This document shows positions 52,502 to 55,008 of a DNA stretch of 64,000 nucleotides, in pieces. The DNA lies in contig CAZENF010000002.1 in assembly GCA_964513645.1 (NCBI GenBank), positions 206,072-270,071 of the forward strand, in the 5' to 3' direction. A program made the position numbers and the translations under genes. Below the pieces are notes generated by a model. The model did no database searches and was not told where the DNA came from. It saw nothing but the letters and a program-made list of their open reading frames with translations. Every line of letters starts with the position of its first letter. Positions within the stretch are counted from its first letter, which is position 1. The DNA is from an uncultured Candidatus Saccharibacteria bacterium (GTDB taxonomy: Bacteria > Patescibacteriota > Minisyncoccia > 2-02-FULL-40-12 > GWA2-44-9).

Positions 52502-52574
52502 CGCGGGGTGGAGCAGCGGTAGCTCGTTGGGCTCATAACCCAAAGGTCGGGGGTTCGAATCCCTCCCCCGCAAC
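52502..52574 (+). tRNA. Initiator tRNA-fMet (anticodon CAU)
   Basis: C1xA72 mismatch, three G-C pairs in the anticodon stem (GGGCTCATAACCC) and T-loop TTCGAAT. Confidence 0.8.
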
Positions 52575-52629
52575 AGCAATGTGTCACCATTGGCACCAAA
52601 ACAGTCAGAAATGGCTGTTTTTGGTTTAT
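52569..52629 (+). repeat. 61-bp perfect direct repeat, copy 1. Spans the last nucleotides of tRNA-fMet plus its terminator hairpin.
   Basis: Identical to 54948-55008. Confidence 0.9.
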
Positions 52630-52647
52630 AAAATAAAAGAGAGCATT

Positions 52648-53142
52648 TTAAGCTCTCGCATCCACTAATTGAGTTTTCAGAAGAGATCCCTCCCTCACGG
52701 TTGTAAAAATCGGCCTAATGGGACCGGATGGCCAGTTGAACTGAATCGGCTTTTCGAATCTTTTAAGATCAGTAAAGAAATATCCGAATGGCAGCGGATA
52801 AACACCAGCTCGATACCCCTCTCTTTCAACCAATCTTCGTGCCTGACTACGAGTCAGATTATTGAAGTTCAGATACATCTGATACTCTTCACGTTGTTTA
52901 AGTTCTCGAACAGATACGAGTCGCCCAACCCCGATAATAATCCCGTGATTTTGTCTCCCGCTCTCGTATTCGTAATTGTTCACGCAATGCCAAGCAGTTC
53001 TTCCTGAATTATATAGAAGCACATCGCCTCGATAATCCCAATCATAGCTTCTGGTCTTTACGCCATATTCACCTAACTGTAGTCGTCCGTCCAAAAGCAT
53101 ATCGTTATATGGATACCAATTAGGAAATACCGGAAGTTTCAT
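52648..53142 (-). CDS. Hypothetical protein (orphan) inside the repeat-bounded islet
   Basis: 164 aa with an AGGAGA RBS. No family recognised. Confidence 0.5.
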   Translation of the reverse strand: MKLPVFPNWYPYNDMLLDGRLQLGEYGVKTRSYDWDYRGDVLLYNSGRTAWHCVNNYEYESGRQNHGIIIGVGRLVSVRELKQREEYQMYLNFNNLTRSQARRLVEREGYRAGVYPLPFGYFFTDLKRFEKPIQFNWPSGPIRPIFTTVREGSLLKTQLVDARA

Positions 53143-53220
53143 TAGATTCTCCTATTGTTTCAGAACTGATCCACATATTACTCTTAATCTATACTATTTC
53201 AAGCAGAAGAAAAACTATAT

Positions 53221-53274
53221 ATCTCCCCGATATTCACTATCAATTGTTGCCAATGACGGCACACTTCTGCAACA
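53221..53274 (+). repeat. 54-bp repeat element, copy A, with internal palindrome TGTTGC(N18)GCAACA
   Basis: About 87% identical to 55631-55684. Confidence 0.7.
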
Positions 53275-53285
53275 CTATAGGAGAG

Positions 53286-53311
53286 ACAGACGCCGAAACG
53301 TCTGTTTTTTC
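53286..53311 (+). terminator. Plus-oriented hairpin plus T6 immediately after repeat copy A
   Basis: Stem ACAGACG/CGTCTGT followed by TTTTTT. Confidence 0.5.
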
Positions 53312-53326
53312 TTGGCCTGTGAGGTT

Positions 53327-54859
53327 CTAACCGAGGAGTTTTATTCCGACGAGAAATGATATTAAAAGCAGGGCTATAATAATCCCTGTTTCCTGGCTTG
53401 TCATTTTGTTCGGTAGCGGTGCCGACAGGCCAGAGGGTTCTTCTGTTTGGGAAGTTGAAGGTGGCGGGGAAAGTATCTCGAATTCGGACAGAGAATAGAA
53501 AGTAGCATTATCGTTTTCGTGGACTACTTTAAGAACGTAAGGCCCGGAGGGTGCGGATAAAGGTACGGTAAACTCGGTGTCGAAAGAATCGCCGCCATTC
53601 TCAACTTCCATATTGCCAAGCTCAAATGAACTTACCGTGCCTTCTATCGATATAAAATATTTCCCTGATTCCTGGAGCCCGTCGGCATTTACGGTAAATT
53701 TGTCCCCAGCCAAAATTTTATCCGGCTTGACCGTTATGGCCGGTATCATATGAGCGTATGCGTTCTGAACTAAAAAAGAATTATCTTTTATTGGCCAGAA
53801 TAACCCTTCCTTCATAGTTTCTGTTTTATGCAAATATGCTTCGGCTCCAAAAAGCAATAATGTTGCCAGTATCAGTCCGCCAAGTACCATTATTGGTTTT
53901 CTTTTGGCAGGATGAAGATACGGATTTGTATCGATAAAAGGTATCAGCGCCAAGAGCATAAAAAGTATAGCCGGGCCGAAAATAACCGCCTTAAACCCGA
54001 AAAAATCTTCCATTCCGTAAAAAGGCAGAAATGGCCAGGGTGGTTTGGTAAGTTCGGCGCCGACTACGCCCGGAGTTCCAAGGGGGTCAGGAAAGACGAG
54101 GGCCATCAACCCGAGAACAGAGAACAGAATGAGATTGCATCCTAAAAGTTTTTTAAGATGTCCTGCAAAATTTGACTCTCCTTCACCGGCCGTTGAACGG
54201 CTGATCGCTTCAGGCGTCGGAGCCGGTGAGATCCCGTGAAGCTTTATTAAATAAAGATGAATGAACAGAAAGGATAAGAACAAAAAAACAAGAAAAGTTA
54301 TATGAGCGAAGAAGACCCGGGCTAAGATAGGGATACTGATCGCAAAACCGGAAGTGAACCATAGGCCCATGCCGCCTAAAAGTTCGCCGACCCCGATATT
54401 ATGAGTCAGCGCTTCAATCGCTTCCTGGTCCTGTTTAAGAACCGTCCCGGTGAAATAAAACGCCAGGGCCAGTACTAAAAGCATCAGGCCGGTCAGCCAG
54501 ATGAATTCCCGCGGTTTTTTATAACTTCCGGAAATAAAAACACGGACCAGGTGAAGCAGAATTATCACTATAAAAAAATTCGCGGCCCAGTAATGCAAGC
54601 TTCTTAAAAATCCTCCGAAAGGAATCATTGTCGCCAGATAAATTATGCTTTTGTAGGCGTTATCGGGGGACGGGTTATAAAATTGGGCCAAAATAATACC
54701 GGTTAAGACAAGGATTACAAAACATCCCAGAGCCACACCCCCCAACATATAAGGCGGGGTATTGGCGTGACGAGGCACACCATAATAAAGCCGCGAGATA
54801 CCAAGCCGTTCATCAAGAGCGGACCACAGGCGGCTTGAACGGAATCCATCTTTTTTCAT
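53327..54859 (-). CDS. Cytochrome b (bc-complex type) N-terminal domain fused to extra TM helices and an extracytoplasmic beta-rich domain with a C-terminal TM anchor
   Basis: Helix B signature RSLHYWAANFF...LLHLVRVFISGSYKKPRE (compare RxLHxxGAS.FF...H..RG.YYGSY..PRE). Second His pair AHITF...FIHL. 510 aa. Confidence 0.7.
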   Translation of the reverse strand: MKKDGFRSSRLWSALDERLGISRLYYGVPRHANTPPYMLGGVALGCFVILVLTGIILAQFYNPSPDNAYKSIIYLATMIPFGGFLRSLHYWAANFFIVIILLHLVRVFISGSYKKPREFIWLTGLMLLVLALAFYFTGTVLKQDQEAIEALTHNIGVGELLGGMGLWFTSGFAISIPILARVFFAHITFLVFLFLSFLFIHLYLIKLHGISPAPTPEAISRSTAGEGESNFAGHLKKLLGCNLILFSVLGLMALVFPDPLGTPGVVGAELTKPPWPFLPFYGMEDFFGFKAVIFGPAILFMLLALIPFIDTNPYLHPAKRKPIMVLGGLILATLLLFGAEAYLHKTETMKEGLFWPIKDNSFLVQNAYAHMIPAITVKPDKILAGDKFTVNADGLQESGKYFISIEGTVSSFELGNMEVENGGDSFDTEFTVPLSAPSGPYVLKVVHENDNATFYSLSEFEILSPPPSTSQTEEPSGLSAPLPNKMTSQETGIIIALLLISFLVGIKLLG

Positions 54860-54947
54860 GAGTTAATTATACTACCAACTTCTGACAAACACGAACGGCT
54901 GATAGCCGGTTGATCCCATAATTGCGGCTCGGACATCGTTCATCGCT

Positions 54948-55008
54948 CGCAACAGCAATGTGTCACCATTGGCACCAAAACAGTCAGAAATGGCTGTTTT
55001 TGGTTTAT
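54948..55008 (+). repeat. 61-bp perfect direct repeat, copy 2 (att-like duplicate of the tRNA-fMet 3' end plus terminator)
   Basis: Identical to 52569-52629. Confidence 0.9.

Follow-up and report, generated by a model that had tools for sequence, protein, structure and literature searches.

The cytochromes b of the bc1 and b6f complexes are built on helices A-G, bind their hemes through HX13H and HX14H ligand pairs, carry an R...G.YK.PRE block and operate with Rieske and cytochrome c partners. Other membrane redox proteins act on metals with different scaffolds: the cupric reductase CcoG, which goes with the P1B-type ATPase CcoI, holds Fe-S clusters on the cytoplasmic side, and the cytochrome b561/FRD ferric/cupric reductases are di-heme conduits that reduce metal at the far face of the membrane. 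Among mobile DNAs, integrative islands targeted to tRNA genes have a direct repeat over the tRNA 3′ end, and mobile insertion cassettes (MICs) and cargo-bearing elements resembling miniature inverted-repeat transposable elements (MITE-like elements) are mobilised in trans by the transposase of an insertion sequence (IS). Here we compare with these systems a locus from a contig of the Candidate Phyla Radiation (CPR; Parcubacteria), of which 64 kb (64,000 nucleotides, nt) were examined; this stretch is called the window below. In it, the gene for a cytochrome b fusion protein of 510 amino acids (aa) lies beside an initiator tRNA-fMet, among two types of short repeats. According to the joint explanation that we find best, and in which our confidence is evenly balanced, the DNA 3′ of tRNA-fMet is a mosaic with two small cassettes and the cytochrome b would serve as a copper-linked electron conduit.

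The 510-aa protein has the helices A-G, the ligand pairs and the R...G.YK.PRE block of the bc1 and b6f cytochromes b. It differs from them in that its clade has no Rieske or cytochrome c partner in any of ten loci, reads PPW[PMI] instead of PEWY or PDWY, lacks the heme-cn Cys and has added invariant E146, E149 and H153 in the cd helix. Moreover, the window protein adds an Ig-like ectodomain and an eighth transmembrane (TM) helix, and the context of the clade appears to be metal export rather than respiration. As membrane redox proteins genetically tied to a copper ATPase, members of the clade resemble CcoG, but their scaffold is a bc-type cytochrome b. The cytochrome b561/FRD reductases are comparable as di-heme conduits, although their fold is unrelated to that of the window protein.

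A cytochrome b fused to an Ig-like ectodomain

The fusion gene (53327..54859, minus strand) encodes seven TM helices with His89, His103, His186 and His201, a linker containing AYA/H at residues 367-370 (the slash marks the putative cleavage position in this and similar protein motifs), an immunoglobulin (Ig)-like sandwich at 374-463 and a TM anchor at 488-509. An earlier reading made from the sequence alone (hereafter, the sequence-only reading) had seen here a cytochrome b with four histidine ligands, fused to a beta domain with a C-terminal anchor. This part of it holds. The protein matches both Pfam models above their gathering scores, PF00033 (Cytochrome_B) with an E-value of 6.4e-24 and 85.3 bits (gathering score 27.2) and PF13631 (Cytochrom_B_N_2) with 2.2e-21 and 77 bits (gathering score 27). 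Its best solved relatives are cytochrome b6 (1e-31) and, over residues 27-322, the cytochrome b of bc1 (1e-20). In an alignment of 21 clade members, H89, H103, H186, H201 and the R106..G111.YK.PRE118 block are invariant. In the AlphaFold2 model (predicted template modelling score, pTM, 0.79), TM helices A-G, seven in all, are followed by a disordered linker, a beta-sandwich (374-463) and an eighth TM helix of high confidence (488-509). Judged by its sequence, the protein is a genuine bc/b6-type cytochrome b with both heme sites (four ligand histidines, on helices B and D).

The quinol-oxidation (Qo) region of the clade departs from the canonical one. At the Qo motif the window protein reads K272-P-P-W-P, and the clade as a whole PPW[PMI], as opposed to the canonical P[ED]WY, so that the acidic residue is absent; the position of the b6 heme-cn Cys is occupied by Met. 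Another set of clade-invariant residues, Q145, E146, E149, H153 and E284, maps to the cd and ef regions of the outer face, which in canonical complexes is the docking place of the Rieske head. The scores against NCBIfam equivalog models are all below the cut-offs (ExtP, 149.7 against 290; b6, 132.5 against 325; QcrB, 87.9 against 500). Within CPR the distribution of the clade is patchy, which fits the horizontal acquisition proposed in the sequence-only reading; the electron-transfer capacity which that reading took to have been acquired is not supported by the results given below.

When modelled alone with AlphaFold2, the ectodomain reaches a predicted local distance difference test score (pLDDT) of ~97. 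The topology of the cytochrome b family places the beta-sandwich of the fusion, by inference, outside the cytoplasm. A homolog of this C-terminal module is encoded as a separate gene in Chloroflexi, two genes downstream of the cytochrome b (L116:6309-6827, 172 aa; BLASTP E-value 2e-12, 28% identity over 138 aa). The alignment of the Chloroflexi protein with the window ectodomain begins exactly at AFAH and AYAH, respectively. The Chloroflexi protein has an N-terminal hydrophobic leader ending in ...GLGMTPAFA/HG, with the cleavage site read from the sequence, and a C-terminal TM helix. Going by these sequence features, the CPR ectodomain is a fused neighbor gene, whose Chloroflexi counterpart is a predicted separate secreted protein anchored at its C-terminus. 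The motif hydrophobic-P-x-A-[YF]-A-H is kept in 16 of 18 fused homologs.

The standalone homolog recalls copper binders of the YcnI, CopC and PCuAC type. YcnI is composed of a signal peptide, an N-terminal His, a beta-sandwich and a C-terminal anchor (PMC8424229). The Chloroflexi homolog likewise has a putative signal peptide, a conserved His at the predicted mature N-terminus, a beta-sandwich, a Pro/Ser-rich linker, a C-terminal TM anchor and a neighborhood of copper-homeostasis genes. It differs from YcnI and CopC (PMC8424229) in that the ectodomain has neither a DUF1775/CopC Pfam match nor a second conserved His and, in CPR, is fused behind a cytochrome b. Membership of the ectodomain in the CopC, YcnI or cupredoxin families was considered and rejected, having neither profile nor fold support. 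At most, therefore, the ectodomain may work like a histidine-brace copper protein, not as a member of those families.

Copper and heavy-metal genes around the cytochrome b clade

We surveyed the context of the clade in ten independent loci: six from CPR (the window, L001-4, L005, L006/7, L008 and L009-11), one from Chloroflexi (L116-118, with a cytochrome b that is 53% identical, 355 aa long and devoid of the ectodomain) and three on actinobacterial plasmids (Streptomyces pFRL4, S. mirabilis pI and Pseudarthrobacter pA, with cytochromes b that are 44-46% identical). A gene for a heavy-metal P-type (P1B) ATPase is located within 6 kb of the cytochrome b in seven of the ten, often adjacent to it or co-directional with it. 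Other neighbors include CsoR (two loci), a multicopper oxidase, heavy-metal-associated (HMA) chaperones, YHS, SHOCT, DUF2933/ICMT, DsbD/redoxin and VKOR/DsbA proteins. The ATPases fall into two groups. Those of the first have CPH/MSxST motifs and are CopB-type copper pumps by the established P1B classification; those of the second have an unusual CPD motif in TM4 and are common to the CPR, Chloroflexi and Streptomyces loci. Neither a Rieske Pfam match nor an open reading frame (ORF) with CxH...CxxH or CxxCH turned up in the window; among the other clade loci examined no such ORF is recurrent, and none of the ten loci encodes a Rieske protein. Taken together, the gene context points to probable roles in copper/heavy-metal homeostasis, not to respiratory operons.

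The CPD-type ATPases (L008:5781-8150 in CPR, L116:1378-3870 in Chloroflexi, L123:10226-12733 and L124:8344-10932 on Streptomyces plasmids) have CPD in place of CPC, CPH or SPC, together with YN....P and M..SS motifs, and those of the CPR and Chloroflexi loci are 53% identical. They may represent an unclassified P1B subgroup that travels with the clade cytochrome b. SHOCT genes, in CPR together with LemA, occur beside the ATPase/cytochrome b pair on both Streptomyces plasmids (L123:5569-5862 and L124:4272-4550) and in a Parcubacteria island (L009-L011:6091-7367).

Because clade members of three phyla sit within clusters for copper/heavy-metal export and the ectodomain begins at the conserved AxA/H, we infer that the cytochrome b and its ectodomain form a copper-linked transmembrane electron conduit. 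A copper ion or copper protein would be bound at the ectodomain, with its leading His, and at the acidic/His patch of the cd helix; across the membrane, the two b hemes would pass electrons between this copper and a quinol or a cytoplasmic donor or acceptor. Such electron transfer would decide whether exported or incoming copper is Cu(I) or Cu(II), by cupric reduction or cuprous oxidation, and the cytochrome b/ectodomain pair would in this way support copper handling based on P1B-ATPases.

Several observations weigh against the copper-linked conduit. The ectodomain gives no HMM (hidden Markov model) match to CopC, YcnI (DUF1775) or cupredoxin, and fold searches return generic Ig/macroglobulin domains only. 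The AxA/H motif follows helix G by 20-25 residues (~110 in P0005), farther than is usual for signal peptidase I. In the actinobacterial loci the partner is a different one, with genes for 170-aa proteins, non-homologous to the Ig module, upstream of the cytochrome b. In the window itself no ATPase is within reach and the genes are housekeeping ones. Finally, the literature generally regards CPR bacteria as unable to synthesize heme and quinones.

The other function that has to be considered is respiratory. The sequence-only reading had proposed a quinol-oxidising cytochrome b paired with a blue-copper-like protein for extracellular electron transfer. In its full form this would be a working quinol-oxidising bc-type complex, or an extracellular electron-transfer chain, with the cupredoxin-like neighbor as acceptor, giving respiratory capacity to a fermentative CPR host. 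In its favor, the protein's place in the cytochrome b family is clear, helices A-G and the two heme sites being present; 80 nt separate the tRNA from a cupredoxin-fold gene upstream of it, and a PetAB complex is on record for one Parcubacterium (PMC5220378). The partners and the motifs speak otherwise: the window has no Rieske or cytochrome c gene and the other clade loci have none that recurs, PEWY has become PPW[PMI] with the loss of the acidic Qo residue, and the scores stay far under the NCBIfam cut-offs for b6, QcrB and ExtP.

The cupredoxin-like neighbor itself, orf168 (51915..52421, minus strand), is a membrane-anchored cupredoxin-fold protein with an HPTH...YHNH pattern and no type 1 (T1) Cys; it is adjacent to the feature and not demonstrably part of it. 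Alone, it matches Pfam with an E-value of 0.035, below the cut-off, while 24 of its 34 homologs match Cupredoxin_1 and the family profile finds amicyanin at ~1e-5. The cupredoxin-like character noted in the sequence-only reading is thus recovered, as a fold, at the family level. By contrast, the Cys position of the type-1 copper site is Asn (YHNH) and the family conserves HPTH...YH[ND]H, so that orf168 is not a demonstrable blue-copper partner. The family is large, with 3686 representative clusters in CPR, and is absent beside all the other cytochrome b loci examined. Its members (homologs P0149-P0298) are single membrane-anchored domains with invariant W99, H105-P-T-H108 and Y152-H-x-H155, and these His motifs recall the HxH of multicopper oxidases. 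With no Rieske or cytochrome c, no Qo glutamate and no T1 Cys, the respiratory or extracellular electron-transfer function is unlikely, and we accord it very little probability.

Repeats and cassettes 3′ of tRNA-fMet

The initiator tRNA-fMet (CAT) occupies 52502..52573 on the plus strand, with the A73 discriminator at 52573 and the CCA not encoded. ARAGORN reports tRNA-Met(CAT) at 52502-52574 and Rfam gives 66.3 bits for 52502-52573. A C1xA72 mismatch and GGG/CCC in the anticodon stem mark it as an initiator, and it groups with the fMet-type tRNAs of relatives. A perfect 61-bp direct repeat (R61), proposed in the sequence-only reading to cover the tRNA 3′ end and a hairpin, is indeed present, in plus orientation, at 52569..52629 and, as R61', at 54948..55008. 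The first copy takes in the last 5 nt of the tRNA, the left inverted repeat described below and the hairpin at 52598-52621; the second forms the left end block of a cassette. The two copies are 100% identical and the only ones in the 64 kb covered by the repeat and recombinase searches (0 expected by chance), with no third copy there even at blastn-short sensitivity. The tRNA contributes only CGCAA to R61, and the rest includes the hairpin, which has a 10-bp stem. Outside the repeat, neither the 5 extra nt reported by the repeat search nor the 15 nt upstream of the R61 copies show significant similarity. A decayed tRNA T-arm to the left of R61' was considered and rejected, given that its 5 matches in 15 are equalled by 27% of random 15-mers. 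As the sequence-only reading had stated, there is no integrase between the repeats; no integrase or recombinase domain occurs in any annotated ORF of the window either.

A second repeat type accompanies R61. The 58-nt repeat D2 (53217..53274, plus orientation) contains an inward-facing promoter-like site (53243 to 53214), and its counterpart D2' (55627..55684, plus orientation) is 88% identical to it. D2 and D2' lie 648 and 679 nt, respectively, from their R61 copies, and the intervening DNA is unrelated (orf164 on the minus strand in the first case, orf177 on the plus strand in the second). R61 and the reverse complement of D2 have in common a 26-nt core, CAG.A.TGTG.C..CATTGGCA.CAA, in which 20 of 26 positions match at offset 0, that is, at equal distance from the outer edge of both blocks. 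A 20-nt version of this core occurs exactly four times, in the order > < > <, where 0.02 occurrences are expected. In a fixed-register control, 4 of 200,000 random window 31-mers gave as good an inverted match (p ~2e-5); when any register was allowed, 5 of 5000 shuffles did so.

Because the similarity between copies begins at CG-CAA/CAG... and ends at ...CTG/CAA-CA (slashes marking the element boundary here and below), the simplest description is that R61 and D2 form two cassettes of ~0.7 kb, bounded by inverted repeats and bracketing the cytochrome b gene. Each has 26-nt imperfect terminal inverted repeats within conserved end blocks of 55-60 nt, with a hairpin on the left and a promoter-like site on the right, and each carries one cargo gene with its own terminator, the two genes being in opposite orientations. 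Cassette S1 (52574-53269) starts with the left inverted repeat CAGCAATGTGTCACCATTGGCACCAA (52574..52599, plus), whose first base directly follows the tRNA discriminator and which is preceded by CAA (52571-52573). It ends, at the right end block D2, with the inverted repeat at 53244..53269 (minus; 20 of 26 positions matching the left one), followed by CAA (53270-53272). Cassette S3 (54953-55679) runs from the inverted repeat at 54953-54978 (plus; CAA at 54950-54952) to that at 55654-55679 (minus; CAA at 55680-55682), with R61' as its left and D2' as its right end block. CAA thus flanks both ends of both cassettes, within a common CGCAACA.

The cargo of S1, orf164 (52648..53142, minus strand; terminator at 52657-52639), is a conserved hypothetical protein of Parcubacteria. 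It had been taken for an orphan in the sequence-only reading, which is not borne out: its 26 homolog clusters in Parcubacteria belong to arrays of small genes that contain neither cytochrome b nor R61/D2 ends, and R61/D2-like ends are absent from the flanks of the homologs (L110-L115). The cargo of S3, orf177 (55067..55600, plus strand; terminator at 55592-55608), has one known homolog, 78% identical, whose flanks (L121) are unrelated and free of R61/D2-like ends. The terminator hairpins after orf177 (55592-55614) and after orf99 (56820-56842) are 91% identical to each other, reading GCCGAC.AATC.TCGGCTTTTTA, and recycled promoter/terminator modules of this kind also lie between small genes in L110.

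A plus-strand hairpin with a U6 tail (53279..53312; -19.1 kcal/mol, z -4.4) follows S1 and is also located 3′ of the convergent cytochrome b gene. It is oriented for the plus strand, on which there is at present no gene for it to terminate. When S1 and one CAA are deleted in silico, the stem of this hairpin starts ~5 nt after 52575, just past the tRNA 3′ end. Inserted at the exact tRNA 3′ boundary, S1 would have parted the tRNA from a terminator formerly used by the tRNA and, convergently, by the cytochrome b gene. The cassettes would be non-autonomous, moved in trans by a recombinase or transposase, and would insert at CGCAACA. If they are mobile, an allele without S1 would read tRNA...GCAA/CACTATAGG, one without S3 would read ...CTCGCAA/CAAACAGG, and a cassette circle would show the abutted junction ...CACTTCTG-CAA-CAGCAATG....

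MICs and MITE-like elements with cargo are the nearest parallel, being alike in size (~0.7 kb), in having inverted repeats at their ends, passenger genes and what may be a short flanking direct repeat, and in lacking a transposase. The window cassettes differ from them in having no known cognate IS, in occurring as two copies at the same CGCAACA target and in ending in CAG...CTG instead of the common TG...CA. The pdif (Xer) modules of Acinetobacter plasmids are similar in forming an array of small modules with alternating sites (> < > <) and no recombinase gene in the array; the window sites, by contrast, have no clear 11-6-11 dif structure, lie inside 58-61-nt blocks of two types and are chromosomal, beside a tRNA. 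Two further candidates were rejected: tandem duplication of a 2.4-kb unit, since everything but two short blocks is non-homologous, and integron attC sites, since on inspection R61 and D2 do not fit the RYYYAAC/GTTRRRY boxes.

Mobility of the cassettes also has points against it. There are only two copies, both in one assembly, and the 64 kb contain no transposase or recombinase to move them. A search of Joint Genome Institute (JGI) metagenomes with the 26-nt inverted-repeat consensus gave 18 single matches, all in unrelated coding contexts and attributable to chance, and viral contigs gave 0. The identity of the left blocks is 100% and that of the right ones only 88%, an odd pattern if the insertions were independent. 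The cytochrome b gene may be all that the hairpin at 53279-53312 serves to terminate, and CAA/CGCAACA, being the same at both sites, cannot be told, as a target-site duplication, from a part of the element itself. Moreover, a free 2379-bp circle having R61 in common with the chromosome would yield the same assembly.

The sequence-only reading had interpreted the R61 copies as attL and attR of an islet of 2.4 kb. Its starting point, a direct repeat that includes the tRNA 3′ end, stands; R61 is now one of two repeat types, and the second is left unexplained by that interpretation. Spelled out, a 2379-bp element with orf164 and the cytochrome b gene would have integrated site-specifically at the 3′ end of tRNA-fMet, with the identical R61 copies as attachment (att) cores, the DNA beyond the second copy as what is left of an earlier related element, accounting for D2', and the integrase lost or acting in trans. 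An allele reading tRNA-R61-TTTACAAATA, without the 2379 bp, would then be predicted. In favor of such integration, the perfect R61 starts inside the acceptor stem of the tRNA, recombination regenerates a perfect core and the 88% identity of D2 fits older homology. On the other hand, the repeat takes in just 5 nt of the tRNA, the window holds neither an integrase nor a third att copy, and the guanine-cytosine content is not deviant. Integration also leaves a U-tailed plus-strand terminator stranded inside the element, and explains neither the exact-register inversion of R61 and D2 (p ~2e-5) nor the fact that the D2/D2' similarity ends at the same CAACA.

The nearest related genomes are Candidatus Yanofskybacteria and other Parcubacteria, with a GatA identity of only 72-73%; the order GatC-GatA-orf166 is kept and synteny is lost beyond it. 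No empty site was found, the collections searched containing no close relative. The second tRNA-Met of the window, of elongator type (58518..58590, plus strand), is 5.9 kb from tRNA-fMet, compared with 75-600 nt between the two tRNA-Met genes in relatives, which favors an islet; therefore, more than 2.4 kb may be inserted DNA. In L013, L016, L009 and L018, tRNA-fMet and the second tRNA-Met(CAT) adjoin each other, in tandem or divergently, 75-600 nt apart. In L018 (12034-12342) the pair, 75 nt apart, comes directly after the orf166 homolog, as in the window, and has no 5.9-kb insert. Within this interval of the window, positions 56515-56814 encode a 99-aa ORF ending in H-x3-C-x2-C, with a weak match to the anti-sigma factor RsrA (E-value 0.003). 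Directly downstream of it, 56816-58024 encode a flavin adenine dinucleotide (FAD) oxidase related to L-2-hydroxyglutarate oxidase and type 2 glycerol-3-phosphate oxidase. Both genes are between the tRNA-Met genes, and neither has a counterpart near GatA in relatives.

In another lineage of Parcubacteria (L009-L011; cytochrome b 43% identical), the cytochrome b gene is again convergent with tRNA-fMet. In L009 and L011, tRNA-fMet on one side and, on the other, a copy of the tRNA 3′ 25 nt plus ~230 nt (82%) delimit the island with cytochrome b and a copper ATPase, beyond which L011 encodes a large serine recombinase; this likewise favors an islet. Between the tRNA and its diverged 3′ copy, L011 encodes SHOCT and LemA proteins, a CopB-type ATPase, a 131-aa protein and the cytochrome b; L009 has a shorter copy, and L010 has no copy and different neighbors. 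L009, L010 and L011 (1-12100) encode identical cytochromes b and differ in the island content by tRNA-fMet, which comprises toxin-antitoxin pairs, CsoR and a 1367-aa helix-turn-helix (HTH)/Mrr protein with a large serine recombinase. The tRNA-fMet region of these loci looks like a strain-variable hot spot.

As in tRNA-targeted integrative islands, then, the window has a direct repeat over a tRNA 3′ end, and the same tRNA bounds an island with cytochrome b and a copper ATPase in a related lineage; the window locus is unlike such islands in having no integrase, in repeating only 5 nt of the tRNA and in having an extra repeat type related by inversion. The attL/attR islet is only one of several possibilities, because the second repeat, the exact-register inverted repeat and the stranded terminator at 53279-53312 are not explained by it. 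Integration of the 2379 bp is thus possible but incomplete as an explanation, and we regard it as rather doubtful; it may describe an older event, with the cassettes added later.

Alternatively, the four sites could be operators or other protein-binding sites co-regulating orf164, the cytochrome b gene, orf177 and orf139, or the tandem layout could be a product of assembly from a repeat loop or strain variants. In favor of operators, three of the four sites are in promoter-bearing intergenic regions, with orf164 and the cytochrome b gene starting ~100 nt downstream of sites 2 and 3, respectively. Their conserved blocks of 58-61 nt, one pair of them 100% identical, go far beyond what an operator needs, and the orientation of the sites relative to the genes is inconsistent. 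As to assembly, independent Logan contigs identical to 54979-59411 start 30 nt inside R61', a break of the kind seen at a k-mer branch, and the left junction of R61' is without independent confirmation. The branch in the Logan graph at the right edge of R61, however, reflects real sequence: two continuations exist in those samples, and nothing more follows from it. Shared operators or an assembly product together have little probability, and the two inverted-repeat-bounded cassettes remain our preferred description.

Elsewhere in the window, positions 6740-11351 encode a PrkA/DUF444/SpoVR trio, a stress-kinase module known from Bacillus and enterobacteria and here found in a reduced genome.

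Possible copper chemistry and cargo shuffling in CPR bacteria

The association of a Rieske-less bc-type cytochrome b with copper/heavy-metal export across phyla is apparently undescribed. Our literature searches, which were limited in coverage, returned nothing describing a cytochrome b/copper association, and the CPR papers that they found discuss only bo3/bd oxidases and one PetAB complex. Tentatively, and with well under an even chance of being right in all its parts, we propose a cross-phylum redox module composed of the Rieske-less cytochrome b and an Ig-like copper ectodomain starting with His1. Together with P1B-ATPases of the CopB type and of the unclassified CPD type, it would oxidize cuprous or reduce cupric copper, independently of O2, on the outer side of the membrane. 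In CPR bacteria its two parts would be fused in one gene, placed in a tRNA-fMet hot spot and framed by site-specific gene cassettes of a new kind that lack a recombinase.

At the outer face of the membrane, the detoxification of copper is generally credited to O2-dependent multicopper oxidases; how the Cu(I)/Cu(II) state is controlled there in anaerobes, or in minimal cells such as those of CPR bacteria, is the question on which the clade bears. Streptomyces plasmids are genetically tractable, which makes the module a directly testable candidate. For CPR genomes, a lone "cytochrome b" calls for caution before it is read as respiratory capacity. Should the cassettes at CGCAACA prove mobile, Parcubacteria would have given a first hint of a small element that shuffles cargo genes. 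If the copper-linked conduit is true, it would represent a new use of a very old bioenergetic scaffold, in which the cytochrome b of bc/b6f complexes has been recruited into copper-export clusters of CPR bacteria, Chloroflexi and the metal-resistance plasmids of Streptomyces.

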